A DNA stretch of 64,000 bases from Candidatus Omnitrophota bacterium. GTDB lineage: Bacteria; Omnitrophota; Gorgyraeia; Gygaellales; Profunditerraquicolaceae. The notes under the pieces were generated by a model. The model was given only the letters and a program-made list of their open reading frames with translations, did not search any database and was not told the origin of the DNA. The translations under genes and the position numbers were made by a program. Positions 2,718-42,840 of the stretch are shown piece by piece. How positions within the stretch are numbered: position 1 is the first letter of the stretch; each line of letters starts with the position of its first letter. The DNA lies in NCBI GenBank assembly GCA_022710715.1, contig JAKLGJ010000003.1, forward strand, positions 25,083 through 89,082, in the 5' to 3' direction.

Positions 2718-3290
2718 TTAATCCGTATAATTCGCCACCAGCGTGGCGGTCTCCACCTGGGAATTCAGGCGGCCGTTAATACCGCCGTACATCGCGTCAT
2801 CTTCCCCGCTATCCAGGACGCCGTTAAGATTCTGGTCTTCCCCGAATACGCGGTTGCGACTGCGAAACGCGACTGCCGCGCGGACATTTTTCAGATCGGT
2901 AAACGCCGTCGCGCCAATAGTGGCGTTGCTGATCTCCAGTACGCCGACCATAGTGCCGGAAGAGAACGTAGAGCCGTTATAAAAACACTGATTCGAACAA
3001 CTGCACGCGCAGGTGCAGGCCGAAACATTGCTTAAAGAACAATCCGGACAGCCGGTTGCCGGCGTCGCGCACGTATTTAACCGGTTGAACGGGGTAGCTT
3101 TCACCTCTTCGATCTTGGACATAAGCAATCCGTTGGACCGGGCAAGATCGCGGGAAAGATCGGTCATGGTCAGCATATTAGTATACGTCAGCAGCATTCC
3201 CGACAACGCGATCGCCAGGATGACGGCGGCGATCATCACCTCCACCAGCGTAAACCCTTTTTCCGATCGTGCAGCCTTTTTTCGGCGCAT
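2718..3290 (-). CDS. prepilin-type minor pilin (PilV-like)
   Basis: KGFTLVEVMIAAVILAIALSG is a prepilin N-terminus. Cys-rich C-terminal half. Confidence 0.65.
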   Translation of the reverse strand: MRRKKAARSEKGFTLVEVMIAAVILAIALSGMLLTYTNMLTMTDLSRDLARSNGLLMSKIEEVKATPFNRLNTCATPATGCPDCSLSNVSACTCACSCSNQCFYNGSTFSSGTMVGVLEISNATIGATAFTDLKNVRAAVAFRSRNRVFGEDQNLNGVLDSGEDDAMYGGINGRLNSQVETATLVANYTD

Positions 3291-3808: not shown

Positions 3809-4279
3809 TTACTCAATCGGATCCTCGGCTGAACCGTCCCAGGGAACAGCAGTCTGGGCTCCGGGATCAGCTGCGCGGAGAACTCCCGATGTGTCGACAT
3901 AGAAGCACCTGACGCCGGTTGTACCCCAGGTGACCGGACAGGATGAAGCCGTGAATCCCTGCCAGTTGCCTGCGCCTACCGTAGCTTCGTCAATACCGGT
4001 AAGTTCGAAGTTGTAACCCTGTTTGGTACCGGCAGCCAGAATACTGTCGATGTACGGAGGTGTATCGTCGTCAAGAATAGCCAGATTGGTCGGGTATCCC
4101 TGATGCGAAGAACGATACGTATGAGCGCCGGATGAGATCGTCTTGAGTGCTGCGATCGCTGCCGATTCATTCGCCGCCAAACGGGCTCTAAGCAAGTTGG
4201 GAATTGCTATAGCCGCCAGCAACGCGATGATCGCCACAACGATCATGATTTCCACGAGCGTAAAACCTTTCCTATTCAT
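3809..4279 (-). CDS. major type IV pilin / type II secretion pseudopilin G-like protein
   Basis: MNRKGFTLVEIMIVVAIIALLAAIAIPNLLRARLAANESAAIAALK is a canonical PilA/PulG N-terminus. Confidence 0.8.
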   Translation of the reverse strand: MNRKGFTLVEIMIVVAIIALLAAIAIPNLLRARLAANESAAIAALKTISSGAHTYRSSHQGYPTNLAILDDDTPPYIDSILAAGTKQGYNFELTGIDEATVGAGNWQGFTASSCPVTWGTTGVRCFYVDTSGVLRAADPGAQTAVPWDGSAEDPIE

Positions 4280-4436: not shown

Positions 4437-4582
4437 GGAAAATATGTTTGGTTTCAACAACTTAAGATATAAATTTGTTTAATTTCCTCAACACTGCTCC
4501 CCTCCGGTCAAACCGGAGGGGTTCGCTGGAAACAAAACGGCCTTAAGGTAAAACCTTAAGGCCATCTTAATAGTTTTACCCT

Positions 4583-4720
4583 CTTTGGCGGCTAGGCTAT
4601 CCGTATGCGCGAATACCAGGCGCATATGGATCCTTCGGCTTTGCTCCGTAGCCGGCCTTCGGCCGGATACGAACCCGCCAGTCTACGGCGGGGTCGCCCG
4701 ATTACTCGGGTTTTGCCTTT
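4583..4720 (+). ncRNA. candidate structured small RNA (unidentified family)
   Basis: GC-rich multi-hairpin region in a 650-bp gene-free gap. It has two cUUCGg tetraloop hairpins that are stable only in the plus-strand sense, an 11-bp stem AUCCGUAUGCG/CGCAUAUGGAU, and a closing helix UGGCGG...CCGCCA. It ends in a terminator-like CCCGAUUACUCGGG followed by UUUUGCCUUU. Confidence 0.35.
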
Positions 4721-4933
4721 ATCAGTAGGATAAAGATCTTTCTAGCTAAGCATAGCACATTCTACCCCGTTTGTCAAAGATCGAACCTCTTGATCGTCGA
4801 GCTTTAAACAAAAGAAAACATTCGCTACTCATGGTGAGAGGGTCAGTCTCAAACAAAGCATACCATAATTTTAGCCCTTTGTCAACTCATTGTTGATTTT
4901 TTATCAATTGCGATTAGAATACTTCAGGCGGGT

Positions 4934-9354: not shown

Positions 9355-9484
9355 ACAGAAAGCGCTTCCAAACCGAACCGTCTCTAACTGACTGATAAAA
9401 TTAGAGTTACATCACGGCTTGTTAACAAAGTCAATATCTGGCTTCCAGGCCTTGAATTCCTTCTTTCCCCCTGTTACACTTAAT

Positions 9485-9622
9485 TGGAGTTAAAGTATTC
9501 TTATCGAAAAGGGCTCCGGGGGGATTACTGGGGGCCAAAGCCACGGATCGGTAAGCATTATTCTTTTATGCGTTTCGATAACCGGGTTGCCGAAATAAGA
9601 ATCAGCGGCGACGCGGTTTTTT
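9485..9622 (+). promoter_or_regulatory. conserved structured 5' leader with intrinsic terminator (possible divergent c-di-GMP-I/GEMM-like riboswitch)
   Basis: Contains CAAAGCCACGGAUCGGUAAG and UUUCGAUAACCGGGUUGCC...GGCGACGCGGUUUUUU. Both blocks are shared with the two minus-strand leaders at 31.7 and 34.2 kb. It ends 40 nt before the ATG at 9664. Confidence 0.45.
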
Positions 9623-9663
9623 CATTTCTTACACAACAGCTCATCTACCTGGGGGGGGGAACG

Positions 9664-12600
9664 ATGCTGACACGCTGCCTGAAATTTCTTTCTGCTTTCC
9701 TTATTATCTTCAATCTGGCAATTCCGGCAAGTTACGCTGATTTCGCGGTAGCGCCGTATAAACGCTATCCGCTGGCTTCAGGCCGCTCCGCTGCGCCGGC
9801 AACTCCAACTACTCAACAACCGGCCAACGCTGTGACACCTGCGGTAACTCCCGCTGCGACCCCGGCGCAATCAACGCCGGCAGCGCGGACAAGTACGCCT
9901 TTTGTGCGCTCAACCCCCTTGCAGACGAAACAGCCCGCGACTACGACCGCTCCGGCGGCTTCAAAATCGTCCACTTCACCGGCGCCGGTTGTAACTCCCG
10001 CGACGCCCCCGGCGCAGTCAACGCCGGCAGTGCGAAGAACCACTCCATTCGTGCGCTCCACTCCCTTGCAGACTAAACAACCCGCGACCACGGCCGCTCC
10101 GACTACTCAACAACCGTCCAGCACTCCTGCGCCTGCGGCAACTTCGGCACAGACAACTCCGGTAGCACGGACAAGCACGCCTTTTGTGCGCTCGACTCCC
10201 TTGCAGACGAAACAGCCCGCTACCACGGCCGCTCCGGCAGCCCAACAGCCAGCGGTGACTCCGGCGCAGACAGTTCCGGCGGTTACTCCCGCAGCAGCGC
10301 CAGCCACACCGGCTGTCGCGGCTAATCCGGTATCCCTGATCCCCGCTTATCAAAACCCGACTCCGGCATTCGGAACCAGACATACAACTGCTGCAACTAC
10401 AGCTACCAGCCTGGCGCAGATGAGCCCGGAGCAACAGGCCAGTCATATCAACTCTTTATCCGGATATGACGCCGCCCAGATGCTTGCCCGGCTCGACCAG
10501 AACCAGCTCAAACAGGTCATGGCCCAGCCCGGACTGAAGACCGACCTGCTTTCTAAAGTCAGCCCGTTCATTACCCCTGCTTCTTTTGCCGGGCTCACTC
10601 AATCCATGAACGCCGAGCAGATTTCCGCAGCCCTTTCCGCTGCGCCGCTGAACGCGGAAACTTACGCAAAAATACTGGAAAACTGCCCCCAGGCCGCGAC
10701 TGGAATGAAAACATTGATCAAGTCAGACCCGAATAAAGCTTTAAGCGCCATTACGGGGATGAGCGTAAACAAACAGGGCGAAGTATTCAGCCAGCTCGAC
10801 AGCAAAGATATCGCCGCACTGTTCAATGCCCGGACTTCCGACGGCTCGGACCCCAGGGACAACTCCGATCTTTTCGCCCGGCTTTCCCCGGACCAGCAAA
10901 ACAGCGTGTTGAAGGAATTGAGCGCGGTTAACCCGGCGCTGGCCCAGAAATACCTGTACGCGACCACCCAGTCCCTTACCAGAGGCACCAGCGAAGACGC
11001 AAAAGCCAAGCTTTCCGGCGACAGCGCATCTTCCGTTGACCATCCCGGATTGCTGGTAAACGATATGAACCCGGATCAACTTAAAGCGCTTCTGGGCGTG
11101 TGTCAGCCCGGAACTCTCGGCGCGATCCTGGCGGACAGCAAACTGAATACGGCGACCCGCAAACGCATCCTGGATATCATGAAAACCAGCTTCGAGAAAG
11201 CCGGGAATATCGAACAGACCGTGCTCTCTGCCAATGCCAACAAAGTTCCGCAGGACCCGCAACAGTACCTTTTCGATCTGGCCTGGACAACCTACTCCAC
11301 GCTCGATCCGGAAGGCGCTAAGGAAGATTTGAACTCGATCCAGTCCGCGGTAACCGGCTACAACCAGCGCCGCCAGGAATCGGTATTGAAACAGATCGCC
11401 GGAATGGATACCTCACGGGCAGGCGAGCTTCTGGCGCAAACCGACATTTCGGTAGCCCAGACCGCGCAGTTGATCATGTCCGCCTCCGGAGAGCAGAAAG
11501 CGAAGCTGCTGTCCGCGCTGGAACAATCCGATCCGGAGAAGGCAAAAGAAACCAAAACCATGATCAGCCGGATCGAGGAAAACAACCGCAAAGCCGCGCA
11601 GATAGAGAAAAACAACGAACAGGTGCGCAGCACCCTGAAGAAAGTCGGGCCGTCACCGGTAGCCGACTATTTCATCCGGAAAGGCAGTTCCGAACAGACT
11701 ATCGGGGAGCTGGCCCTGATGGACCAGAAATTCATCGACCAGACCCTGTCTTTGATCGAAAAGAAATCGCCCAAGACTGCCGCGCAGGTGCGCAAAGACC
11801 TGGCCGCATACCGGCAAAAAGCTTCTGCTTCGACCACCGTAGATCAACACCTGGACAATCTGGTGAAAGGCTCGGCGCAGGATGCGGCGCTTTTCATTGC
11901 CGCGCAGACTCCGGCAAACGCTAAGAATATTCTTTCGGAACTGGCCAAACGCAACGCATCGTTTGCGGAAGCAACCCTGGCGCAGCTCAAGAAGGTTGAC
12001 TACCAGCTTGCCGACGAAACCCAGAAAAAAGACACCCGCCGCCTGACCAAGAACGAACTGGGGCAACCCATCATTATCGACGGAGAGAACGTCTATCAAG
12101 TGGAAGAGCTTTCCGACGGCACCATCCTCACCCACAGGAGCACCGGAACGGTCAACAACACGAATCTCGGTAAGATCAACGATTCTCCGCAGAATACCGA
12201 GCTGGCCGCGGGCGTTAAGCCAGTCGATATCGACCTGCAGAAGCCCAGGATATACCTTACCGGACAAACCGCCACCGATAACAGCGTAACGATCACCCCG
12301 GGTTCCGGCAGCTCTACTCCCAAGGACGCCTGGTACGATCCGGTGAACAAGCGCTACGGCGACAGCACCAGCATCGGCAGCACGCCCAAGCCGGAATGGA
12401 ATATCAAACGGGAAATAACCTATGACGGGATCGGCAAGCTGACCTTCAAAGGTCAGCTTGACCCGCAAACAGGCGCGCCCCTCGACGGAACAGAGATGAC
12501 CGACGAGAAAGGGCACATCTTCACCGCGGTCACCAAAACCAGCCCGACTTCAGACAAACAGGTCGCCATCCCCGTGCAGACAACCTACCATGCCGGGGAC

Positions 12601-13023
12601 AATCTAACTCTGACTGACGGAACCGAATTGACTTTCAAGAGAGATACCCGGGTGAACCCGGGAATCGGAGAACTGCCGGCAGGCACGGAATTAACCGACA
12701 AAAAAGGCCGGCTGTTCGCTGTGGCGCCGGTCACCAATCCGGCCACAGGCAACCAGGTCTTCACCTACCAGCAGATAAGCTATAACGCCGGAGACACCGT
12801 TGAACTGAAAGACGGGACCACATTGACCTTCAAACAGGACACGATAGCCGACCCGAACACCCTGAAGTTCAAAACCAATGCAATACTCACGGATAAGGAC
12901 GGAAACTACTGGGAAGCCTTCGGAACTGTGACCAGCTTGCAATTCAAACAAATCAATCCAGCGACAGTTGAAAAAGACTGGAAGGTGTTCGACCCGGCAA
13001 CCGGACGTTTAGCCGGTAAATAA
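9664..13023 (+). CDS. giant secreted repeat protein (Pro/Thr/Ala-rich tandem repeats, helical middle, C-terminal beta repeats)
   Basis: The start is moved to ATG 9664 (MLTRCLKFLSAFLIIFNLAIPASYA signal peptide, G-rich SD). The track's longer N-terminus translates the upstream leader RNA. The protein has 3.5 tandem repeats of about 45 aa (STPFVRSTPLQTKQPATTAAP). At the C-terminus LTLTDGTELTFKRDT and VELKDGTTLTFKQDT are duplicated. Confidence 0.6.
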   Translation: MLTRCLKFLSAFLIIFNLAIPASYADFAVAPYKRYPLASGRSAAPATPTTQQPANAVTPAVTPAATPAQSTPAARTSTPFVRSTPLQTKQPATTTAPAASKSSTSPAPVVTPATPPAQSTPAVRRTTPFVRSTPLQTKQPATTAAPTTQQPSSTPAPAATSAQTTPVARTSTPFVRSTPLQTKQPATTAAPAAQQPAVTPAQTVPAVTPAAAPATPAVAANPVSLIPAYQNPTPAFGTRHTTAATTATSLAQMSPEQQASHINSLSGYDAAQMLARLDQNQLKQVMAQPGLKTDLLSKVSPFITPASFAGLTQSMNAEQISAALSAAPLNAETYAKILENCPQAATGMKTLIKSDPNKALSAITGMSVNKQGEVFSQLDSKDIAALFNARTSDGSDPRDNSDLFARLSPDQQNSVLKELSAVNPALAQKYLYATTQSLTRGTSEDAKAKLSGDSASSVDHPGLLVNDMNPDQLKALLGVCQPGTLGAILADSKLNTATRKRILDIMKTSFEKAGNIEQTVLSANANKVPQDPQQYLFDLAWTTYSTLDPEGAKEDLNSIQSAVTGYNQRRQESVLKQIAGMDTSRAGELLAQTDISVAQTAQLIMSASGEQKAKLLSALEQSDPEKAKETKTMISRIEENNRKAAQIEKNNEQVRSTLKKVGPSPVADYFIRKGSSEQTIGELALMDQKFIDQTLSLIEKKSPKTAAQVRKDLAAYRQKASASTTVDQHLDNLVKGSAQDAALFIAAQTPANAKNILSELAKRNASFAEATLAQLKKVDYQLADETQKKDTRRLTKNELGQPIIIDGENVYQVEELSDGTILTHRSTGTVNNTNLGKINDSPQNTELAAGVKPVDIDLQKPRIYLTGQTATDNSVTITPGSGSSTPKDAWYDPVNKRYGDSTSIGSTPKPEWNIKREITYDGIGKLTFKGQLDPQTGAPLDGTEMTDEKGHIFTAVTKTSPTSDKQVAIPVQTTYHAGDNLTLTDGTELTFKRDTRVNPGIGELPAGTELTDKKGRLFAVAPVTNPATGNQVFTYQQISYNAGDTVELKDGTTLTFKQDTIADPNTLKFKTNAILTDKDGNYWEAFGTVTSLQFKQINPATVEKDWKVFDPATGRLAGK
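9840..10270. repeat. imperfect tandem DNA repeats (about 135-147 bp period) inside the giant secreted protein gene
   Basis: cttgcagac(g/t)aaaca(g/a)cccgc recurs at 9918, 10065 and 10200. Confidence 0.7.
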
Positions 13024-14004
13024 TTCCACTTTATTGCGCCCGGATTTTTTGGCCTGATACAACGCTTTGTCCGCGTTATCCAGCAATCCCGCCAGCTCTT
13101 TACCCTGCTGCGGGAACAATGAGATCCCGACACTCACCGTGACGTCTATCCGCTCGTCATATGCCACTACCGGTTTGCTCTGTATGCCCGCGCGGATACG
13201 CTCCGCCACGAACAACGCCCCCTCTTTATTGGTTTCGGTCAAGAGAATGGCGAACTCCTCCCCCCCGTATTTACCGATAAGATCGACCTGACGGATGTGC
13301 GCTTTGATCCGCTGCGCGACTTCCTTGAGTATCGCGTCCCCTACCAGATGGCCGTAATGATCGTTGATATCCTTGAAATGGTCGACATCAAGCATCAAAC
13401 AGGCGCAGGCATAATTAAAAGCCCTGGAACGGGATAATTCCTCCGACGAACGCCCCCACCAGTACCTGCGCGCCGATACCTGGGTCAGTCCGTCGATAGT
13501 GGCCATCTCCTGCACTTTCTGATACAGAATGGCGCGTTTCATTCCCAGCAGGAATTGCTGGGAAAGAATGGTGAATTTATCCCGGTCTTCCCGGCGTACC
13601 GGCGCGACGACCAGATAATTCATCAGCTGGTCTTCCAGCCGCAGAGGCACTATCGCGTATTCCTTGAACGCCGCCAGATCGGCGTCCGCGGGAACGAACC
13701 GGCAGTCTTCGACAGCCAGCATTTTGTGCAGCTTCTCCTTAAAAACCGAAAACACCTTATCCTGATCGAGATGGCTGCACAATTCCCGGGTGATATCGTA
13801 TAAGGTCATGGTCTGCTCCAGCCGGTTGCGTAAATCCATGTTCTGCCCGGTAAGCTGATCGTATTCCTGCAGCAGCCGCTGATAATCAGCCTGACGCAGC
13901 TTCCCTTCGCGCTGCGCCGACAGCACGCGCCTGGCGAAAAACCGCTCCAGCCTGAAATAGAGAAGCATGGTGAGCAAAACAAGGATCGCAATCTGGATAA
14001 ACAT
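13009..14004 (-). CDS. membrane-anchored diguanylate cyclase (GGDEF domain)
   Basis: N-terminal TM helix. C-terminal motifs are RYGGEEFAILL (GGEEF active site) and DVDHFKDINDHYGH. Confidence 0.8.
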   Translation of the reverse strand: MFIQIAILVLLTMLLYFRLERFFARRVLSAQREGKLRQADYQRLLQEYDQLTGQNMDLRNRLEQTMTLYDITRELCSHLDQDKVFSVFKEKLHKMLAVEDCRFVPADADLAAFKEYAIVPLRLEDQLMNYLVVAPVRREDRDKFTILSQQFLLGMKRAILYQKVQEMATIDGLTQVSARRYWWGRSSEELSRSRAFNYACACLMLDVDHFKDINDHYGHLVGDAILKEVAQRIKAHIRQVDLIGKYGGEEFAILLTETNKEGALFVAERIRAGIQSKPVVAYDERIDVTVSVGISLFPQQGKELAGLLDNADKALYQAKKSGRNKVELFTG

Positions 14005-14005
14005 G

Positions 14006-15178
14006 CTAAGCTCCGATCACCAAATTCCTGCCCTTACTTTTGGCTTCATACAGGGCGCGGTCCGCTTTCATAAGCAACTCGATCTCTTCCTGCGCGTCAT
14101 GGGGAAATTCCGCTACACCCACGGAGATAGTGCACTGATTACGCTGCCTGCGCAATAAGAGCTCCCTGGCGGCAACCGCTTTGCGCAGGTTTTCCGCGAT
14201 CTTCAACCCGGTATTCTTATCGGTATCCGGCAGCAATACGCAAAACTCTTCTCCGCCGAACCGGCAGACTACGGCGGGTATCTGCGCGAGAGCCTCGCTC
14301 ACCGCTTTACTGATGGTTACCAGCACGATATCCCCCGCGGCGTGACCGAACGTATCGTTGAGTTTCTTGAAATTATCGATATCCAGCATCAGCAGGCAGA
14401 GCGAGCGCGGATGCCGGTACGTTCTTCGGCATTCGGTCTTAAGCATCTCCAGAAAATACCCTTTATTGAACAACCCGGTCAATCCGTCATGAATGGCCAT
14501 GGTCCGCGCGTCCTTGTACAGCTGCGCATTCTCCAGAGAAACCGCTCCCAGCTCCGCGATGGTCATGAAGAAACGCAGATCGTCCTGGGCGAAGAAACGC
14601 TTGTGCTGATGCTCAAGACGGATCAAACCAATGACCTTTCCCCCGCTGATCAGCGGCACTTCGATCAACGAAGCGATCGGGCGCGGGTCGGCGCGGCGCA
14701 CTTTATCAGCGTCGAAGCGGAAATCCTTGGAGATATCCTCGACCAGCAGCGGACTGGCGTGGCGCAGCACCCAGTGATCGAAACTGTCCCCCTCCTTGGC
14801 TTTGATCACGATCGCGCGTTCGTCTTTAAGTGTCTTGAAGAGGACTAACTTCTGGGTTGAACCGTCGAGCAGATATAACAGGCACTCTCCCTGATTATCG
14901 GCCAGCAGGAAGAACGAAATTGCGCAGAGCTGCTCGGCAACCGCATCCAGGGAAAGCTCCTGGTTCAGCAGTTCGATGATACGTTTAAGATTTTCGTAGC
15001 GTTCGATGCGCCGCTGCAGGAACTGGGTGTTCGCGCGCTCCTGCTGATTGGATGCCGACTGAACATTGATGTTCTCCTGAACGCCGTCACCGTCGAGTTT
15101 GAGCTTATAGAGTTGCCGGGAATTTCGCTGGGCGAGCCAGATGACCGCGGGGAGATTGCCCAGATAAAAAACCGCCAA
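14006..15178 (-). CDS. GAF-domain diguanylate cyclase (GGDEF)
   Basis: TM N-terminus, central GAF-like region, then RFGGEEFCVLL and DIDNFKKLNDTFGH. Confidence 0.8.
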   Translation of the reverse strand: MAVFYLGNLPAVIWLAQRNSRQLYKLKLDGDGVQENINVQSASNQQERANTQFLQRRIERYENLKRIIELLNQELSLDAVAEQLCAISFFLLADNQGECLLYLLDGSTQKLVLFKTLKDERAIVIKAKEGDSFDHWVLRHASPLLVEDISKDFRFDADKVRRADPRPIASLIEVPLISGGKVIGLIRLEHQHKRFFAQDDLRFFMTIAELGAVSLENAQLYKDARTMAIHDGLTGLFNKGYFLEMLKTECRRTYRHPRSLCLLMLDIDNFKKLNDTFGHAAGDIVLVTISKAVSEALAQIPAVVCRFGGEEFCVLLPDTDKNTGLKIAENLRKAVAARELLLRRQRNQCTISVGVAEFPHDAQEEIELLMKADRALYEAKSKGRNLVIGA

Positions 15179-26933: not shown

Positions 26934-28196
26934 CTAAACGGACTTTATTTCTAAGTCCTTTTCGGAGAGAACTTTATTAAAAAGATGTTTGGGGAGATTT
27001 AATCGAATCTGAACGCCTTTTTGCAGATACTCGACCTCGATCACTTTACCTTGAGTATAAAACCAGTGCACCAGATCCATCCGACCATGAGGCACGACTA
27101 TTTCCAGAGACACCATTTTGGCGGAGAAATGCTTCTGGATCTCCTCCAGCAGCCTGTCGATATGCGCCCCGTTGAGCGCGCTGATGGGAATCGCCTGCTT
27201 GAAATCCTCCTGCAGCCGCAGCAACCAGGCCTGGTCAGCCAGCAGATCTATCTTATTCAGCGCGGTTATCATCGGCTTATCCGCGTAGCCCAACTCCACC
27301 AGCACATTCATCACCGCGGCATAATGCTCATACACCTTAGGATGGTTGACGTCGAGCACATGAATAAGCAGATCGGATTGAGCCACTTCTTCCAGCGTTG
27401 CCTTAAACGCTTCGATCAAACCATGCGGCAGATTATGCAGAAAACCGACCGTGTCCGAGATGACTATCTGGTCGCCGTTAGGCAGCTTGAAACTTTTAGA
27501 AAGCGGATCCAGCGTGGTAAATAAACTCCTGCTTACTTCCTGCCCGGCGTCCGTCAATTTATTCAGCAGCGTCGACTTGCCGGCGCTGGTATAACCTACC
27601 AGAGAAACCGTGGACACCGCGTTTTCCTTGCGCCGCTTGCGCATCAACTCGCGATGCTGCCGCACGCCCCGGAGATCTTCCTTCAACCGTTCGATGCGCT
27701 GCCGGATCCTGCGCCGATCGATCTCCAGCTTCTGCTCGCCGGGACCGCGGGTCCCGATGCCGCCGCCCTGACGGGACAGGATGAGCCCCTTACCCACCAG
27801 CCTGGGCAGTAAATATTGCAGTTGCGCCAGCTCTACCTGCATTTTGCCTTCCGGACTCTTAGCGTGCTGCGCAAAAATATCCAGGATAAGCTGGGTGCGG
27901 TCGATAGTCTTGCAGCCGATCGCTTCTTCCAGATTACGCTGCTGCGTGCCGGAAAGGTCGTGGCTGAAAATCACCGTATCCGCGACCGTCTGGTCGACAA
28001 GCATGCGGATCTCTTCGGCCTTCCCCTTTCCTATAAGCAGGCCGGGCGTGGGACGATCCACCATACATTCCATAGCGCCGGCAATCTCCACGCCGGTAGA
28101 CCGGGCCAGCTCGTCCAGCTCGACAGACAGATCTTCCAGAGACCAGCTGCTCTTCTCCGCTTTCAGCTTCATCGTAACCAGCAATGCTCTTTCCAT
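26934..28196 (-). CDS. hflX: GTPase HflX
   Basis: HflX N-domain, then G-domain motifs GYTSAGKSTLLN, DTVGF, NKID. Start set at the MERALLV Met. Confidence 0.8.
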   Translation of the reverse strand: MERALLVTMKLKAEKSSWSLEDLSVELDELARSTGVEIAGAMECMVDRPTPGLLIGKGKAEEIRMLVDQTVADTVIFSHDLSGTQQRNLEEAIGCKTIDRTQLILDIFAQHAKSPEGKMQVELAQLQYLLPRLVGKGLILSRQGGGIGTRGPGEQKLEIDRRRIRQRIERLKEDLRGVRQHRELMRKRRKENAVSTVSLVGYTSAGKSTLLNKLTDAGQEVSRSLFTTLDPLSKSFKLPNGDQIVISDTVGFLHNLPHGLIEAFKATLEEVAQSDLLIHVLDVNHPKVYEHYAAVMNVLVELGYADKPMITALNKIDLLADQAWLLRLQEDFKQAIPISALNGAHIDRLLEEIQKHFSAKMVSLEIVVPHGRMDLVHWFYTQGKVIEVEYLQKGVQIRLNLPKHLFNKVLSEKDLEIKSV

Positions 28197-28283
28197 GAAG
28201 ATATTATAGCACAAAAAAGTCCCGGGGGGCAGCGAACTGCTCTCCGGGACTTTGAGCAAATGTTTGCGTCGTTAACCGGGCTG

Positions 28284-29537
28284 CTAATTGCCGTTCTGCG
28301 GCCAGACCACAGGTTCCCATTTATTTTCGTTGGTCAGGCCGAGTAGAACATTATTTATCACCTTGTACTGATTGCGGAACTCTTCCCGCATTCCGCCGGG
28401 ACGATACTCCACCGTGTCATCGGCGCTCTTGAACACATCGAAGTATCCGTTGTCGTCGAGATCTATGGCGCCGACGCCGCCATACAGATGATAACCCGCA
28501 TTCCAGTTTATCGCATCCGCCGCGGGCTTGCTCACGGCTGCCGGAACTTCGATGACTGCCTCGCCTGCGTCCGACACAGCATACTCCCCTGCGGTGCGGG
28601 GATTGAAGTTCTCGTTGGGCAGATCGTAGTACGTCCCGGAACCGTCAGGATCCACGGCGATCACCGAGCCCGTGGCGATCATATAATCGTGCGAATTAAG
28701 GACTGCGTTCATATCGCCGTATTTTATCTGCGCCGCCGGATACTGCTTGCCGATGGTATCGAGTATTGCCTTAGCGTCGTCCGGCTGCATCGAATTCAGG
28801 ATATCGTAGGCCTGATCGAGCTGCATGTCTTTCGGATTAGCCAGGATCTGAATTGCCAGGTCCATTCCTCCGCTTGTCGCCTGGCTTTTGTAAATCCCGG
28901 TCATTACCGTCCCCGCCTGTGCGGGGTCCATCGTACCCAGAACCCGGGCGACCTGGCCCACGTCCACTTTGGCCATCGCGCCCATCACCTGCGTCACTTG
29001 AGCGGTATCCATCTGATTGAATATCTGCGCTTTTTCGCCGGCATTAAGATAGGTGCTGCCCATCACCGAGGACAGCTTACCCGTATCCATCTGATTGCCC
29101 ACTATTGCCGCCGCCACCGCAGGCATATTCTTTATGGTATAAGCGGCGCGGTCGGTAGGCAGCGCATTGAATGCGCCCGCAACCAGCGCGGACTTGTTAT
29201 CGGCAACCAGCTGCGTGCTCACCAGGGCATTGACTTTGGTGTCGAGGGTAACCATCAGCCTGGCGGTATCGCCCGCAGTAGTAAAAGCGCTGGCTTTCTG
29301 ATAGGCGTTGCCTGCAGCCAGCTGTTGGCCCGAGCTTAAGGAAGCAGGCGAGGCAAACGTCTTGCTGCCGGTAGACACCTGCTGCTTGCCGCCGCTATCG
29401 ACAGCCTGGCCGGTTTCGGAGCGGGTCCAGACCCCGTTATTCCAGTAATTATAGGCCCAGGCATTCCCGCCTGCGCTTGCCGCTGCCAGGCCGCAGAGCA
29501 CCGCGCAGAGCAATACTACCGAACTGTACTTTTTCAT
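28284..29537 (-). CDS. secreted hypothetical protein
   Basis: Signal peptide MKKYSSVVLLCAVLCGLAAASA. Lies 57 bp downstream of the 29595 gene, so probably co-transcribed. Confidence 0.5.
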   Translation of the reverse strand: MKKYSSVVLLCAVLCGLAAASAGGNAWAYNYWNNGVWTRSETGQAVDSGGKQQVSTGSKTFASPASLSSGQQLAAGNAYQKASAFTTAGDTARLMVTLDTKVNALVSTQLVADNKSALVAGAFNALPTDRAAYTIKNMPAVAAAIVGNQMDTGKLSSVMGSTYLNAGEKAQIFNQMDTAQVTQVMGAMAKVDVGQVARVLGTMDPAQAGTVMTGIYKSQATSGGMDLAIQILANPKDMQLDQAYDILNSMQPDDAKAILDTIGKQYPAAQIKYGDMNAVLNSHDYMIATGSVIAVDPDGSGTYYDLPNENFNPRTAGEYAVSDAGEAVIEVPAAVSKPAADAINWNAGYHLYGGVGAIDLDDNGYFDVFKSADDTVEYRPGGMREEFRNQYKVINNVLLGLTNENKWEPVVWPQNGN

Positions 29538-29594
29538 AACTTCTCCTCTATCGCTGATATACCTGTCGAACTCCTAACCTTAAAGCCGGTAGTA

Positions 29595-31547
29595 TCAACT
29601 CGCTGGATTCAAATCTTTAATATTCACCCTGTAGGGTTCAGCCGGATGATACTGATTCGGCGTCCCGTCTTGATTGTGGATCGAGTAAAACGCATCCTGC
29701 GCCACTTTATTCCATCCGATCAGGGAAGCTTCCCAATTCAACGCGGCATTCCCCATCCCGACACCGACAACCTGCCCCTCGTCATTGACAAACTCCACAT
29801 CGTTGATACCTATAAGACAGGTTGTGTTGATCTGATCCATCGGGAAACCGATCGCGCCTTCTGCCTTATTGAGATCATGTATCCATTGATAGGGATTCGA
29901 CCATTGGCCGAACGGACTGATCGCAGAATTGGTGCCGCAGAGAATGCTGGCGGCGCGGATTTCCGCAGGCGTTTGGCTCAAGGAAGTACCGGTCAGCAAG
30001 GTATTATACCCATTACCCGAGGCAATCTCGAAGTTGCCGTTAAGCAAAGCGACGGGATCAATCCCCCGCATCGCGACATCGCCGGGAGAATCCACATACG
30101 TGACCGGGGTTATATTCCCGGAGGCCATCTCATTTTCGGATAGGTTCTTGGCCGCTACCTGAAACTGCGTACCTGCAGACACATCCTGAATAAGAACAGT
30201 TCCGGTGCCCGGAGTGGTGTAATCCAGCCGCAGGTTGCCTTGCGCATCGGCCGTTGTCGTTCCCATCACCTGTGGCCCAGTACCCTTGCCGTTATCAAAA
30301 CTGACCACAACCTGTCCGCCGGGGGTCAATCCCGCGGCCACGACATTGTAGTTATCCAACCCCGCGCTCAAACAAAGGATATTCGCATTATCTGCCGATT
30401 GGGAAACGCCATTGAGACCTGGCGCCGCCGCCAGGGCATTACCTCCCTGCAAAGTCTGGCTATTGGCTCCCGGAACAACCGTTATCTGTTGCGGCGTGCC
30501 GGTATTGGGATCCTGGCCTGCATATACGGGCGCGAGTTCAGTCATACCTCCCGCTGTGGCAGTCGTGCCGAAAGTCGGGGCGGAAAGAGTGAGCCCGGCA
30601 TTGGCAAAATCCGCCTGGCCGATGCTAAATCCCGGATTCCCGTTATTCGCGCCCGCGGTGACCCCGACCACCTGCCCGTTCTCGAAACTAACGGTTAAAG
30701 GAGCGCCGACAGTGATCCCCAGGCCGTTCTGTCCGGTAGTGGTCTCATTATTGTACATTGACTGGCCCAGTCCTCCGGGAAGCATTGCCTGTACCCCATC
30801 CCCGTAGGAGAATGTTCCGCCGCCGGTATAGCTGGGCGTCGACAGTTGCGCGGAAACCTGGCCGGGAGCGGTCTGTGTGATGGTAGCGAAGGTATTACCG
30901 GTAGTCGGATTGGATAAAGTGATCGAGGTGATATCCCCGTTAGCGGCATAATTGAAATTGCCCGACGAACCCGTGGGCGCGTTCAAATTGCCCATCGTGG
31001 CGGAAATGTTCATGCTGAATGTCGTGCCGCCAGGAGCAGTGGCCGTAGGAGCAGAGGTAAAGCTATTATTCCCGGTGAGCGTGGCTGAAAAAGAACCTGC
31101 GCTGGCTGGGGTGAAACCGAGCAATGAGGAAACGTTGCCCAGCGTACCGGATGACGGCATGGTCAACGAAGAAGAAAATGATCCTGGATTACTGCTGATT
31201 CCGGGCGAATTCATGGAAGAGCTGGAGAAGCTGGGCACGCTCATTCCGGACATCGTTGAAGAAAGGGTAGGATTATTCGCGGCAAAGGAAATTCGCGCGT
31301 CAGCCGCGTGCTGCGAAGCCGAAGGACCGGTCCCCAATCCGGGACTGCCGGAAAAAGAAGCGCTGCTTCCCGGGCTGCTGAAGCTTGGAGATGAACCGCC
31401 GGACATCAGATTACCGCTGGTATCATGCGTCCCGTTGGAAGCAAAAGGACAGGGATCCGAAGCATCCCATACAGCGGCATGAACAGGAACCGCAAACACA
31501 CAAAACAAAACACTTGCTACCAACAACAAACACGCTTTGTTTCTCAT
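29595..31547 (-). CDS. secreted Ser/Gly/Thr-rich large surface protein (adhesin-like)
   Basis: Start at MRNKACLLLVASVLFCVFAVPVHA (signal peptide). Very long low-complexity S/G/T/N tracts. Confidence 0.55.
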   Translation of the reverse strand: MRNKACLLLVASVLFCVFAVPVHAAVWDASDPCPFASNGTHDTSGNLMSGGSSPSFSSPGSSASFSGSPGLGTGPSASQHAADARISFAANNPTLSSTMSGMSVPSFSSSSMNSPGISSNPGSFSSSLTMPSSGTLGNVSSLLGFTPASAGSFSATLTGNNSFTSAPTATAPGGTTFSMNISATMGNLNAPTGSSGNFNYAANGDITSITLSNPTTGNTFATITQTAPGQVSAQLSTPSYTGGGTFSYGDGVQAMLPGGLGQSMYNNETTTGQNGLGITVGAPLTVSFENGQVVGVTAGANNGNPGFSIGQADFANAGLTLSAPTFGTTATAGGMTELAPVYAGQDPNTGTPQQITVVPGANSQTLQGGNALAAAPGLNGVSQSADNANILCLSAGLDNYNVVAAGLTPGGQVVVSFDNGKGTGPQVMGTTTADAQGNLRLDYTTPGTGTVLIQDVSAGTQFQVAAKNLSENEMASGNITPVTYVDSPGDVAMRGIDPVALLNGNFEIASGNGYNTLLTGTSLSQTPAEIRAASILCGTNSAISPFGQWSNPYQWIHDLNKAEGAIGFPMDQINTTCLIGINDVEFVNDEGQVVGVGMGNAALNWEASLIGWNKVAQDAFYSIHNQDGTPNQYHPAEPYRVNIKDLNPAS

Positions 31548-31654
31548 ACAGCCTCCTCGTGGTTTAATCGTTATTCGCATTAGACCTCGAGTAAGGACGG
31601 CCGTTCCCCATCAAACTAAATAAGCCTGATCCCCCCCACAAACGTCTTACTCCC

Positions 31655-31862
31655 CCTTAAAACAAAACAACCGAGTTGCACTATCCAGGCAACCCGGCTA
31701 TCGAATATAATTTATTTCAGGGTTTTTAAAAGACCTTAAAATGAACTCTAACTAATTTCTCCCGTATTTCCCCTGAAACAAACTGCGTGTTACTTTCGAC
31801 CCGTGGCTTTCCGTCCCCGCCTTACGACGGGTTTGGCTTTGTCGTCACAAGTATGCCATATC
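31655..31862 (-). promoter_or_regulatory. c-di-GMP-I (GEMM)-like riboswitch candidate with terminator expression platform
   Basis: The minus-strand RNA reads GACGACAAAGCCAAACCCGUCGUAAGGCGGGGACGGAAAGCCACGGGUCGAAAG. It aligns position by position with the Vc2 GEMM aptamer: GGGCAAACC / hairpin with GNRA loop / GGGACGCAAAGCCUCCGG. It is followed by a 9-bp terminator stem CCGGGUUGC / GCAACUCGG and UUGUUUUGUUUU at 31659-31697. Confidence 0.55.
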
Positions 31863-31950
31863 AACTTCAGAAATTCAAGTCTTTGTTCCCGACTTTTGCT
31901 TCCGTTTACGCTACCAAGATCAAAATCAGGCTCGAACACGCTTATCAATG

Positions 31951-31983
31951 GTCCTGGAGGACAGTTACCTGTCCTCCAGGACC
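31951..31983. promoter_or_regulatory. perfect 14-bp-arm palindrome downstream of the 32064 gene
   Basis: GTCCTGGAGGACAG TTAC CTGTCCTCCAGGAC. No U tract follows. Confidence 0.4.
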
Positions 31984-32063
31984 TTGACCGAACATTCTCT
32001 CGAACGTGCCTGATTGTCTGTTTGCTGCTTTACTTCTCCCCCTCCCTTGTTGTGGTGGTGCGG

Positions 32064-34052
32064 TTAATTCAAAGGTGAAATGCCGATCGTGCTGTACTGG
32101 CCGCCGTAATAGCCGGCCTCAATGATATTATTGTGGTCTCTGACCCGGTCATTCACCACGCCCGAGCCCGAACCCGGTATCATCATACCCATCTCGTCGT
32201 AATGCGCAGTATTGATGGTGAAGAACGGATCCATTACGATATAGTCCTGCAGCTTAGCCGCATCCATCATGCTCCCGGGAAGCGCATTAAAGGAAGCCTG
32301 CATATCCACTTTATCTTCCATAGACAGGCCAAATCCCTTTAAAGCCTCGGTGCTGACATAACCGCAGAACACCTCATCCCAGCGATTATCCACGTAGGTC
32401 AAACCGCCGCTGGGGGTGGTGAACAAGGATCCCTGGCCGATGACCTGCGACCAATTGTTGATCGATACCGGGCCGTAGAGCAAGTTGCTCATATGCTCCT
32501 GGGCCGAGCCGGAAAGATTGGTCACCACCTGCGAGGTAACCTGACCCTGCCCGTACGTTTCCAGAGTAGAGTCGGCAGGAGACACGCCTTTGATATCGTA
32601 GGTCTTGCCGTCGGCAGTCTTCAGATTGTCCACAAAATTCTCGGCAGTGCTGACTTCGTCGATGGAGCGAAAAGCGACCACGCGCTGATTGCCGGCCATA
32701 TCCTCAACCACAGCCCAGACATTATTGCCATAATGCTTGGTCTCGCCCTGATTATTGGGCTGATCTTTCCAGATTCCCGGCAAGGCGCTGATCACCACGC
32801 CATCGGCGGTGGCAAACCACTTCTCCGGGGAAGAGCCGAATATCTGCGCGCCGTCCTCATCATGGAAAGAAAGCACCTTGCTGACTCCGGACAGATACAG
32901 CGTGCCCTGATTGTCGACAATGGTCAAAGGCGCCAATCCCTGCGGCGCTGCCGAAGTCTGCGCGACTGGCTGTTCCTGATCAGAAGCCAGAAGCTGACCT
33001 TGAGCCTGTTCCTGGCCTGAAACTGCCTCTTTGCTGCCAGCCATCGGATCAATGCCTGTTGCCGCCAGGGAACCGGCGATCGGCGTTGCCGCCTGCAACA
33101 GCGCGCTGTCTTCGCCGAAATTCCTGCCGTCAACTACCATCTGGACCAGCTTGCCGTCCTTATAATTCATGGTGAGATCCGAACCGTCTTTAATACCCAG
33201 GGCAGTGGCCACTTCCGACTTATCACCGATGCCTGAAAAGATCATGTATTCGTTATCGTTCATCTTCATCCTGCCGCCTTCGGTAGCTTCGGCTTTCCAG
33301 GTGGAAACCACGCTACCTGACTGGTCGCGGCCGATCGCGCCAACAGACTTGAGATCGCTATTGACAAATGAGATCTCCACGAAGTTATTCCCGCCCACGC
33401 TTGCGCCTTCGGCAGCGCTCATCTGAACGAACACCTTGGTCCCTTCAGTCACTTTTGCCGGGAACGCTCCGTCGAGATTGAAGGTGGCGCTCTGGTTGTT
33501 GAAATCGAAAGTTATCTGATTGGCGCCGTTCCAGACGCCGGTGGCGCCCAGAATGCCGGTGTTGCTGTTATAGAACAACCCCTGGCCGTTGGTAATCGTA
33601 TCGGGACGGGAAGTAGAAATGGAAAAAGTGGGATTATTGAAGAAGCTTCCCACCGCGTTGGAAGAGCTAAGAGCTATGGATTGGGTGCCGAAAGAAGAAC
33701 TGGTGATGGGATTAGTGGTTACGGAAGGAGTCGTACCCCATTGAGCCCAGATGTTGTGATCCGGACCGCCGTAACTCCACATGCCCGTACCGCTGACCAC
33801 CGGACTGGCGCTGATAGCTGCCGCAGGAGTTGACCAGCTGCCGCCTCCTCCGCCGCCGTCAATACTCACTCCGCCGCCGCCAAAAACGCTGCCGCCCATG
33901 GTTTCCGACATACCTGAAGGTGCCAGATCTGCCTGATACGAACCCGGCGCGGACTCCGTAACCCAGCTCGCGCAGACCGGCATACACAGCGGAACAGTCA
34001 AAAGAACAACTGCGAAAAACATACTTCCTGAAGCCAAGGAATGAAATCTCAT
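32064..34052 (-). CDS. large secreted hypothetical protein
   Basis: Signal peptide MRFHSLASGSMFFAVVLLTVPLCMPVCASW. Gly-rich N-terminus. Preceded by the second riboswitch-like leader. Confidence 0.55.
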   Translation of the reverse strand: MRFHSLASGSMFFAVVLLTVPLCMPVCASWVTESAPGSYQADLAPSGMSETMGGSVFGGGGVSIDGGGGGGSWSTPAAAISASPVVSGTGMWSYGGPDHNIWAQWGTTPSVTTNPITSSSFGTQSIALSSSNAVGSFFNNPTFSISTSRPDTITNGQGLFYNSNTGILGATGVWNGANQITFDFNNQSATFNLDGAFPAKVTEGTKVFVQMSAAEGASVGGNNFVEISFVNSDLKSVGAIGRDQSGSVVSTWKAEATEGGRMKMNDNEYMIFSGIGDKSEVATALGIKDGSDLTMNYKDGKLVQMVVDGRNFGEDSALLQAATPIAGSLAATGIDPMAGSKEAVSGQEQAQGQLLASDQEQPVAQTSAAPQGLAPLTIVDNQGTLYLSGVSKVLSFHDEDGAQIFGSSPEKWFATADGVVISALPGIWKDQPNNQGETKHYGNNVWAVVEDMAGNQRVVAFRSIDEVSTAENFVDNLKTADGKTYDIKGVSPADSTLETYGQGQVTSQVVTNLSGSAQEHMSNLLYGPVSINNWSQVIGQGSLFTTPSGGLTYVDNRWDEVFCGYVSTEALKGFGLSMEDKVDMQASFNALPGSMMDAAKLQDYIVMDPFFTINTAHYDEMGMMIPGSGSGVVNDRVRDHNNIIEAGYYGGQYSTIGISPLN

Positions 34053-34117
34053 CTTCCCCCTCCCCGTATTTAAGGGCCCCCCACTTATCCCTTGCGCTCC
34101 GGATTGAGCGACTTAGT

Positions 34118-34370
34118 AGACAACAAAAAAACCGAGTTGCGCTTGTTCGGCAACCCGGCTATCGAATAGATTGTTTGAGGGTTTTAAAAAGAGTTTAAGA
34201 TCAACTCAAAAAAAATTTCTGTTCCCCATTCCCCCAAAACAAATTGTCAGTTACTTTCGACCCGTGGCTTTCCTTCGGCGTGTTCATGCTGCGTTTCAAC
34301 CGAACTCCCGTCTGGGAGGTCCCCGCCTTACGACGAGTTTGGCTTTGTCGTTCAAAGTATGCCATACTTA
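34118..34370 (-). promoter_or_regulatory. second copy of the GEMM-like leader (with ~45-nt hairpin insertion) plus conserved terminator
   Basis: Matches copy 1 (...UAUGGCAUACUU..GACGACAAAGCCAAAC.CGUCGUAAGGCGGGGAC..GGAAAGCCACGGGUCGAAAGUAAC...) except for an inserted CUCCCAGACGGGAGUUCGG...CCGAA block. The terminator CCGGGUUGC / GCAACUCGG followed by UUUUUUUG is at 34121-34158. Confidence 0.45.
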
Positions 34371-34394
34371 ACCGAGGTTTTCAAGAGTCAAAAG

Positions 34395-35318
34395 CTAACT
34401 TTTGTTTCTTTTTACAATTTTTTGCAAAATCACACTTTTAGCAATACCCGGCCCGACCTTCACCCATACAATCCGCCTGTCCTTACGGAACCAGGTCATC
34501 TGCCGGCGGGCGTAGCGGCGGGTATTGCGCTGCATCAATTCTTTTGCGCCCTGCTCATCCAGCCCGCCCTCAAGATAACTTTTAACCTCCTGTATGCCGA
34601 TAGCGCAGGCAGCAGTCCGGCTAAGCTTTTTCTTCAAAAGCCTCTTCACTTCCTTGACCAGCCCCTGATCGAACATTTCCTCTACCCGCCGGTTGATCCG
34701 CTCATACAAAATGTCGCGATCCATATCCAGGCCGATGATCCGGACATCATATTCTTTATCCAATCCTTTGCGGGTTTGCTGCAGCCGGGAGATGGGAACT
34801 CCGGCTACCGCAAAAACCTCCAACGCCCGCACAATACGCTTGGTATCATTGGGATGGATTTTTCGCGCCGCCGGCGGATCGACCTCTTGCAGTCGAGCGT
34901 GCAACGCCGCGCTGCCCTGCTCCCGGGCCTGCTTGAACAACCGCGCCCGCACGCGGGGATCTTCGGTCTTGACTTCAAATATCCCATCCACCACGATCGA
35001 CATATACAATCCGCTGCCTCCCACGAACAACGGGATGCGGCCGAGGTTGATGATCGTTTTGATCGCTTTGAGCGCTCGGCGGCGGTATTCGGAAACATTG
35101 AATTCATCTTCGGGACTGACTATGCCCAGCAGATGATGCGCAACAGCAGCGCGCTGCGCGGCCGTGGGTTTCGAGCTTAAAATATCCATGCCTTTATACA
35201 CCTGCATGGAATCGCAGGAAATGATCTGCGCGCCGATCTTTTTCGCCAGCGGAATGGAAAGACCGGTTTTGCCGACCGCAGTCGGTCCGACCAGAAATAT
35301 GACTTTCGCGCGTTTCAT
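34395..35318 (-). CDS. miaA: tRNA dimethylallyltransferase
   Basis: VIFLVGPTAVGKTGLSIPLAKKIGAQIISCDSMQVYKGMDI is the MiaA P-loop and signature. Confidence 0.85.
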   Translation of the reverse strand: MKRAKVIFLVGPTAVGKTGLSIPLAKKIGAQIISCDSMQVYKGMDILSSKPTAAQRAAVAHHLLGIVSPEDEFNVSEYRRRALKAIKTIINLGRIPLFVGGSGLYMSIVVDGIFEVKTEDPRVRARLFKQAREQGSAALHARLQEVDPPAARKIHPNDTKRIVRALEVFAVAGVPISRLQQTRKGLDKEYDVRIIGLDMDRDILYERINRRVEEMFDQGLVKEVKRLLKKKLSRTAACAIGIQEVKSYLEGGLDEQGAKELMQRNTRRYARRQMTWFRKDRRIVWVKVGPGIAKSVILQKIVKRNKS

Positions 35319-42249: not shown

Positions 42250-42840
42250 TCCTACTAGCTACATACGCAAAGATTTGGAAAACTGACGGAAATATTTTCA
42301 TTTTTTTCGACCCTCTACTAGCTACATACGACGTTTTTTGTAAAACTGCCGGAAATTTCTTCACTTTCTTCACTACTTTCGCTCCCCTAAGCGTATATTC
42401 CGGATTTTTCCGGAAAGTGTCGGGAATATTTGTCCCCTCATAGGTGATTACGCAAAATTTCCAAAAGTGTCGATGCTTTTGGCAAACTTTTTTCACCTTC
42501 CATAGGTAAAGACGACATTTTTTCCAAAGTGTCGGGGCCCTCTACCGTAGGTATTACGTTTTTAGGTCCAAAATTTAGCATGATCCTTCAACTTTCCTTC
42601 CCAAGGCGTATATACAACCTTTTTTGTCAAAGTGTCCCACCCCTCACCGTAGTTATATGCTTTGGAAGGCAAGATTTCGCATCCCCCACATATGAACACG
42701 CAAAAAATCGAAAAGTGTAATACCCCCAAGCCCTCCCATAGGTGATTACAGAAAAAATGCGAAAGTGTAGGGGCCCTCACCTATGTACACGCAATTTTTT
42801 TCAAAGTGTCGAACTACCCTTCTACTAACCCATACAGGAA
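42250..42840. repeat. iteron-like direct repeat array (candidate replication origin)
   Basis: Two 63-bp-spaced copies of ctactagctacatacg...gaaaactg.cggaaat. Then seven degenerate units with an AAAGTGT(C/A) core followed by (C)ATAGGT / CGTAGGT at 40-100 bp spacing, at 42414, 42464, 42526, 42628, 42713, 42763 and 42803. Confidence 0.55.

Follow-up and report, generated by a model that had tools for sequence, protein, structure and literature searches.

A probable c-di-GMP-I-type riboswitch leader in a Candidatus Omnitrophota bacterium and the proposed elaboration of its P2 hairpin to a four-way junction

The subject of this study is the leader of a gene for an orphan protein of 662 amino acids in a 64,000-nucleotide stretch of DNA (64 kb; hereafter the window) from a Candidatus Omnitrophota bacterium (contig JAKLGJ010000003.1). 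The space between miaA and this gene, both on the minus strand, holds, besides a promoter and a Shine-Dalgarno sequence, a GEMM-I-like aptamer and a GC-rich hairpin with a U-tract behind it. The leader, termed copy 2, has a counterpart in the leader of an adjacent gene, termed copy 1; both lie on the minus strand, and all coordinates are those of the window. We propose that copy 2 is probably a working ON riboswitch of the c-di-GMP-I (GEMM-I) class, responding to cyclic di-guanosine monophosphate (c-di-GMP), in which the P2 hairpin has been elaborated to a four-way junction by 45 inserted nucleotides, and that this insertion is not a lesion. The proposition is founded on an intact aptamer core and on insertions of the same layout which recur, and covary, in other GEMM-I aptamers.

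Pairwise alignment of the two leaders revealed that copy 2 is copy 1 plus a single 45-nt block (34274-34318), located between GGGGAC and GGAAAGCC. The inserted nucleotides, CTCCCAGACGGGAGTTCGGTTGAAACGCAGCATGAACACGCCGAA, face the only gap in copy 1, in agreement with an earlier note on this DNA, which had described copy 2 as a repeat of copy 1 with an insertion of this length. The statement of the same note that the repeat is otherwise almost exact is true for the aptamer core, where 75 of 76 positions are identical (31/32 in P1, J1/2, P2 and GAC; 24/24 in the closing pair, J2/3 and the 5′ strand of P3; 20/20 in the 3′ strand of P3 and J3/1). It does not hold for the leader as a whole, where identity falls to 79% of the columns, nor for the distal part of P3, where only 53/79 positions are identical. 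In P2 the copies differ by one C-to-U change which keeps the pairing (C-G to U.G). The two copies share the terminator stem, CCGGGUUGC/GCAACUCGG, and differ in its loop (2/8 identical), as had been noticed before, while the 3′ arm together with the U-tract is identical at 19/21 positions. The promoter layouts also agree (TTGAAA-N17-CATACT in copy 2 and TTGAAT-N17-CATACT in copy 1), and the block TATGGCATACTT is common to both copies without any difference.

The insertion had been assigned in the earlier note to J1/2. The Rfam alignment and the numbering of the Vc2 and Vc1 aptamers (PMC4744006) place it instead in the 3′ strand of P2, the arm called P1 in the nomenclature of 2007, between the C44 equivalent of the conserved GAC and the G45/G46 of the closing pairs. 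P2 has been described as a highly conserved arm consisting of 2-bp and 6-bp stems, a 3-nt internal loop and a GNRA cap, and GEMM was listed in the same work with variable-length stems and not with modular stems (PMC1950547). All the elements of P2 are present in copy 2 (CC/GG, the AAA/GAC loop, the 6-bp stem and GUAA), and two hairpins, A and B, which abut without linker nucleotides, interrupt the internal loop on its 3′ side. Most likely, the insertion makes P2 (2 bp, 3-nt loop, 6 bp) a four-way junction composed of the closing helix, P2, hairpin A and hairpin B.

The alignment shows that the nucleotides of the ligand pocket are retained. In Vc2 the ligand is contacted by G20, A47 and C92 (PMC4744006, PMC5888326), and the interhelical Watson-Crick pair C44-G83 (C36-G90 in Vc1) was termed universally conserved (PMC4744006). 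The cmscan alignment and direct reading showed that the equivalents of all three contacts are intact in copy 2, namely G34343 (G20), A34271 (A47) and C34150 (C92). The insertion ends 2 nt upstream of the A47 equivalent and leaves the G20 equivalent in J1/2 intact, together with its flanks. The nucleotides of the interhelical pair are also kept, as C34319 of GAC (C44) and G34159 in the AG bulge of the P3 3′ strand (G83); the pair itself is putative in copy 2, where the 45 nt follow C34319 immediately. The AAA linker is present (GG-AAA-GCC), and the P3 pairs follow the model, with an extension of ~90 nt in addition.

At gathering thresholds Rfam finds one RNA in the window, which is copy 1, assigned to RF03167 (c-di-GMP-I-GGC) at 61.0 bits (gathering score 59). 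Under relaxed thresholds copy 2 was matched to RF03167 with 31.0 bits (E 1.2e-4) at 80/80 model positions. Two insertions are penalised in this score, 61 nt for the 16-nt P2 hairpin and 88 nt within P3, and the shortfall is due to these two large insertions and not to mismatches in the core. RF03167 is the best Rfam model for copies 1 and 2 as well as for a third aptamer, copy 3 (61, 31 and 24 bits, respectively; copy 3 is described below). The consensus of RF03167, GACGCGAA, is distinguished from that of RF01051, GACGCAAA, by a G instead of an A after the P2 closing pair, and all three copies have A at this position (GACGGAAA in copies 1 and 2, GAGCAAA in copy 3). From the two consensus lines we infer that GGC denotes G20/G47/C92. 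By that position the copies in the window are probably canonical c-di-GMP-I aptamers and not the GGC variant, and the Rfam label of copy 1 would be misleading.

Among known systems, copy 2 resembles c-di-GMP-I (RF01051, clan CL00126; type Vibrio cholerae Vc2) in J1/2, which reads AAAG with the G20 equivalent; in the 2-bp closing helix, AAA/GAC internal loop, 6-bp P2 and GNRA loop; in the AAA linker with the A47 equivalent, the AG bulge of P3 (G83) and the GC of J3/1 (C92); and in a terminator which competes with the P3 3′ strand. It is unlike RF01051 in the 45-nt two-hairpin insert, in the ~90-nt extension of P3 and in having no 11-nt tetraloop receptor (GYRA-loop type). The identification of the leader as a GEMM-type aptamer in the earlier note is supported, copy 2 being a paralogue of copy 1 of the GEMM-I (c-di-GMP-I) type. 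The riboswitches for 3′3′-cyclic GMP-AMP (3′3′-cGAMP or c-AMP-GMP; GEMM-Ib) differ by subtle changes of pocket nucleotides (PMC7266159). With those of Geobacter, copy 2 shares the fold, an ON-type terminator platform, which is frequent there, and a deltaproteobacterial-style P3 without the 11-nt receptor. The key change in the c-AMP-GMP riboswitches, reportedly found by Kellenberger and by Nelson in 2015, is an A at position 20. Copy 2 is unlike them in this respect, as the equivalent of position 20 is G34343.

Sequence collections were searched with a pattern made from GEMM-I flanks, AAAGSCAAAC...GSRAAGCCACGG, allowing a P2 interval of 11-71 nt in GTDB genomes and of 26-86 nt in metagenomes. 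The GTDB genomes gave at least 120 matches. All the 120 listed are canonical (39-42 nt) and, within the 11-71-nt interval, no insert-bearing aptamer was found among them. The P2 closing pair covaries between GC/GC and CC/GG in these listed matches, the CC/GG type being typical of Thermodesulfobacteriota and related metagenome-assembled genomes (MAGs). The metagenomes gave at least 119 stretches, and ~95 of the 119 listed are genuine aptamers with the order P2, GAC, hairpin A, hairpin B and closing pair, in which P3, J3/1 and the expression platforms are complete. Like copy 2, they carry the insertion after GAC and before the closing pair, their hairpins abut and the remainder is canonical.

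A main class (L124-L238) is made up of at least 77 different sequences (matches of 90-102 nt), and 12 of the 15 members tested pass the RF01051 gathering score, with 35-42 bits. In a MAFFT alignment of 61 distinct members the proposed structure was found to be paired to 93.4%. Both partners had changed in 17 of 27 pairs overall; of these, hairpin A contributes 6 (out of 10) and hairpin B 7 (out of 9). The observed value was not attained in any of 500 shuffles, and pairing fell to 41-59% when the partners were slid by 1-3 columns. The same layout is found, with hairpins of unrelated sequence, in a small class (L142, L202, L169, L241) and in the singletons L226 and L209. Across the classes GAC is retained and there are zero linkers on both sides of hairpin B, while stem lengths (5 to ~12 bp) and loops vary. 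Two side observations were made among these environmental loci. In five of them belonging to the small class (L142, L202, L211, L215, L169) the 3′ segment of P3 is duplicated (GATAGCCGGGTTGYCGCACACGAAATATGG...GATAGCCGGGTTRCCGAAG) before the terminator, which may represent a tandem or alternative arrangement of P3. Four other GEMM-I aptamers (L165, L236, L218, L168) have a branched distal P2, where a three-way junction stands in place of the simple 6-bp stem; the first three of these pass RF01051 (47-59 bits). Elaboration of P2 is therefore not restricted to one site.

R1, a covariance model built from the main class, scored copy 2 at 30.9 bits vs 27.2 bits for the insert-free copy 1, and it aligned the outer hairpin pairs of copy 2, those of hairpin A being aligned to hairpin A of the class. 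Among the GTDB loci R1 found only canonical aptamers, with the main-class P2 sequence. Stems of 9-12 bp in the main class compare with 5-6 bp in copy 2, whose hairpin B differs by a large loop. The platforms of the main class are mostly of the OFF type, with an anti-terminator that involves the 5′ strand of P3, whereas that of copy 2 is of the ON type. The named relatives of the MiaA in the window belong to Candidatus Omnitrophota (57-67% identity). The Prs protein of the main-class contig L132, a conserved protein, shares 81-82% identity with proteins from Deltaproteobacteria/Thermodesulfobacteriota MAGs, and both the P2 sequence and the OFF-type platform of the main class match canonical aptamers of such MAGs. 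Judged from these affiliations of MiaA and Prs, the two-hairpin elaboration is present in at least two phyla.

The window is part of a 1.62-Mb JGI metagenome contig, and the insert and the leader were found to be 100% identical in a second metagenome contig, which was assembled independently from a different sample. Since no homologues of the 662-amino-acid protein were found among 5.8 billion proteins, orthologous leaders were gathered via the neighbouring miaA. In the relative with the closest MiaA homologue (95% identical; L242 and L243, NCBI and JGI contigs) the orthologous leader keeps the insert with four substitutions, all outside the 5-bp stem cores, so that hairpin A and the UUCGG/CCGAA stem of hairpin B are invariant. 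One of these substitutions changes the sixth pair of hairpin B from U.G to C-G and gives a 6-bp stem; the other three are in the loop. Outside the insert, a U.G pair of P2 has become U-A and a G.U pair of the terminator stem has become G-C. The aptamer core of the relative shows 2/76 differences, the said U.G to U-A and a change of GAC to GGC, both of kinds found in other aptamers. The comparison of leader homologues suggested in the earlier note thus provides preserved insert stems and one U.G to C-G change, in a single relative at only 6.3% neutral divergence. It shows that the insert is inherited, and selection is unproven by it. An alternative to hairpin B in the minimum free energy (MFE) fold, B′ (GUUCGGUUG/CAGCAUGAAC), was rejected, as the substitutions of the relative break one of its pairs and extend UUCGG/CCGAA instead. 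A mobile-repeat origin was also rejected, because no further copy of the insert sequence is present within the window.

Evidence for the same elaboration was obtained from copy 3 elsewhere in the window. R1 matched it at 4637-4720 with 46.3 bits (E 1e-10), while the 24 bits under Rfam leave it undetected at gathering thresholds. Its insertion of 48 nt (4645-4692) is at the same site and comprises two hairpins (z −3.8). Copy 3 is equipped with a promoter, TTGACA-N17-TATGCT (4749-4777), and a terminator (~4530-4565), and pairing at the base of its P3 is imperfect (AGCC facing AGCC). The operon downstream of it encodes prepilin-type N_methyl proteins (3809-4279, 2718-3290) together with a DUF4900 protein (236-2122). 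In both copy 2 and copy 3 hairpin B starts with UUCG and ends with CGRA, a likeness which hints at common ancestry within the lineage.

From the layout of the leader a mechanism can be proposed. Transcription would begin at the sigma-70-like promoter of the leader directly past miaA, with a predicted start at the 5′ boundary of the aptamer (~34349-34352). In the ligand-free state the 3′ strand of P3, CCGGGUUGC, would pair with GCAACUCGG to form the intrinsic terminator, which is also present in the ligand-free MFE fold. With c-di-GMP bound at the P1/P2/P3 junction, this strand would be held in P3, the terminator would not form and transcription would read through into the gene of the 662-amino-acid secreted orphan protein. 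An ON switch is predicted because the P3 3′ strand doubles as the 5′ arm of the terminator; terminators competing with this strand were described for 78 of 322 GEMM RNAs (PMC1950547). Owing to the long extension of P3, its 3′ strand is only ~10 nt ahead of the 3′ arm of the terminator, and the same distance of ~10 nt separates the C92 equivalent from this arm. Two GGDEF cyclases encoded in the window, which point to c-di-GMP metabolism, are consistent with such a switch. The P3 extensions of copy 2 (34164-34258) and copy 1 (31700-31795), both on the minus strand, are themselves AU-rich and, at ~90 nt, unusually long for GEMM-I; a long irregular hairpin is predicted, with UCGAA/UUCGA followed by GUUUGUUUCAGGGG/CCCUGAAAUAAAU.

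Modular or optional stems occur in other riboswitch classes. For the two extra hairpins, the constant layout of the junction together with the variable stems and loops suggests a modular scaffold, a folding aid or a tolerated expansion, and favours such a role over a new sequence-specific binding site.

Several points weigh against copy 2 as a working switch. Hairpin B is thermodynamically weak. The fold z-score of the insert is −1.5 and that of P2 together with the insert is −0.3, the latter being no better than shuffled sequences; the thermodynamic support for the insert is not significant and was not used as evidence. P1 has only ~2 bp. The 31.0 bits of copy 2 miss both Rfam gathering scores, that of RF03167 being 59. 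The identity of the cores of copies 1 and 2 could also mean that the insertion is recent or that gene conversion has taken place, and the relative, with 6.3% difference at four-fold degenerate sites of miaA, is too close for a test of purifying selection. The hairpins of copy 2 have no sequence likeness to those of the main class, and the covariation is thus borrowed from what may be analogues rather than proven homologues. Finally, the binding of c-di-GMP by copy 2 is a prediction from sequence.

Some of these points would be accounted for by a degenerate aptamer, in which the insertion abolished the binding of c-di-GMP and the leader persists as a constitutive or otherwise controlled attenuator with an aptamer relic. 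The fall of the Rfam score from 61 bits in copy 1 to 31 in copy 2, the position of the insertion directly behind the C of the interhelical pair and 2 nt from the A47 equivalent, the marginal hairpin B and the inability of the relative to reveal purifying selection would all fit. This is nevertheless unlikely, since the core is identical at 75/76 positions whereas the unconstrained parts of the leader have diverged by 33-75%, same-site zero-linker two-hairpin insertions covary in many GEMM-I aptamers that pass the Rfam threshold, a second such aptamer, copy 3, is present in the same genome, and both core substitutions of the relative are known from other aptamers. The earlier note had left the choice between a structural variant and a degenerated riboswitch; the intact core and the recurrent, covarying insertions favour the variant and disfavour degeneration. 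Next in rank, and likewise doubtful, is a distinct functional subclass in Thermodesulfobacteriota and Omnitrophota, including copies 2 and 3, with altered specificity, affinity or kinetics or with a second input at the hairpins. In its favour, one of two adjacent genes has the switch with the insert and the other has it without, the layout has been kept in two phyla, and in the main class the loop of hairpin A is frequently GNRA-like (GUAAC, GAAAU) and might make a tertiary contact; moreover, with ~10 nt between the C92 equivalent and the 3′ arm of the terminator, kinetics of pre-organisation could matter. Against it, the specificity positions (G20, A47, C92) are canonical, the hairpin lengths (5 to ~12 bp) and loops are unconserved between classes, which argues against a specific docking site, and the pilin-like and secreted proteins downstream are usual targets of c-di-GMP. 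If it were true, canonical and elaborated c-di-GMP switches with different response thresholds would stand side by side, and adjacent paralogues would respond differently.

It is very improbable that the insertion is a neutral passenger, derived from a palindrome or from slippage at a sterically permissive point, with hairpins kept only to avoid misfolding. Hairpin sequence and length are indeed highly variable across lineages, and canonical and insert-bearing aptamers with identical P2 coexist in the same lineages; yet the insert sequence is unrepeated elsewhere in the window, and a two-hairpin zero-linker layout which recurs in unrelated families is unexpected of random insertions. An assembly or chimera artefact, named in the earlier note as a finding that would overturn the claim, has a negligible chance: identical contigs came from two samples, and the insert is present with point differences in the NCBI and JGI contigs of the relative. 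We consequently retain the working ON switch with an elaborated P2 as the probable reading.

Table 1. Positions in the window of the copy-2 leader elements, the other aptamers and associated genes
Feature	Position	Strand	Basis or remark
Copy 3, GEMM-I-like aptamer with two-hairpin insertion	4583..4726 (approx.)	-	Covariance model R1; Rfam at 24 bits
GGDEF diguanylate cyclase genes, adjacent, one with a GAF domain	13009-14004, 14006-15178	-	Domain content
Copy 1, aptamer without P2 insertion	31684..31846	-	RF03167, 61.0 bits; natural insert-free control
Copy-2 gene, 662-amino-acid orphan protein	32064..34052	-	N-terminal hydrophobic signal-like segment
Intrinsic terminator, CCGGGUUGC(C)-loop-GCAACUCGG, then U-tract	34122..34158	-	In MFE fold
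Copy-2 GEMM-I (c-di-GMP-I type) aptamer, full Rfam-aligned extent	34145..34352	-	RF03167, 31.0 bits
P3 extension, ~90 nt	34164..34258	-	In copies 1 and 2; Rfam places 88 nt in the P3 loop
GG of P2 closing pairs (partner CC, 34341-34342)	34272..34273	-	Insertion stops directly before
Inserted hairpin B, UUCGG(U)...(G)CCGAA, loop ~19-21 nt	34274..34304	-	Alignment and fold
Inserted hairpin A, CUCCC-AGAC-GGGAG	34305..34318	-	MFE and centroid folds
Conserved GAC of P2 internal loop	34319..34321	-	Insertion begins directly after C34319
P2 hairpin CUCGUC-GUAA-GGCGGG, GNRA (GYRA) tetraloop	34322..34337	-	Rfam alignment, folds
Candidate -10 hexamer CATACT, copy-2 promoter	34356..34361	-	17-nt spacer to -35; consensus match only
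Candidate -35 hexamer TTGAAA, copy-2 promoter	34379..34384	-	Directly past miaA stop; consensus match only
miaA	34395-35318	-	Pfam IPPT

The proteins encoded next to the two leaders, each of ~660 amino acids, begin with a signal-like segment. Neither matches a Pfam family or has relatives in the protein database, and no similarity between the two was detected; for the 662-amino-acid protein, the only match among 5.8 billion proteins was to itself. In the window miaA is parted from hflX (26934-28259) by both cassettes and a gene with an MgtE_N domain (block 28284-34400), whereas in a distant relative (L245, 6001-8265; MiaA 67% identical) hflX directly follows miaA. The block between the two genes looks like a lineage-specific insertion on this gene order, which would make the riboswitch cassettes lineage-specific. 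Two repeat regions were also observed in the window. The first (42250-42810) consists of imperfect direct repeats, with five irregularly spaced 37-nt units that end in AAAGTGT and two copies of 57 nt, and lies at the edge of a low-GC stretch (0.39-0.46 over 40-52 kb vs 0.54 elsewhere). The second (9788-10266, plus strand) consists of tandem repeats of 135-147 nt with 71-78% identity inside an open reading frame of 1179 amino acids (9484-13023).

Literature searches found no four-way-junction or insertion variant of GEMM-I, an absence which is no proof of its being undescribed. The two-hairpin four-way junction of P2 is apparently an undescribed variant of a known riboswitch class. This class, c-di-GMP-I, is among the most abundant and best-studied ones, and its first hairpin has been thought to be architecturally conserved. 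A recurrent, covarying insertion beside the ligand pocket marks a site at which the fold can accommodate, or make use of, elaboration. It also explains why real switches may fall at or under the Rfam thresholds, copies 2 and 3 being missed at gathering thresholds. Copies 1 and 2 constitute a natural matched pair in which the effects of peripheral helices on affinity and co-transcriptional switching could be followed. In the Omnitrophota-like lineage, the control by c-di-GMP riboswitches would extend to orphan secreted proteins and pilin-like operons.

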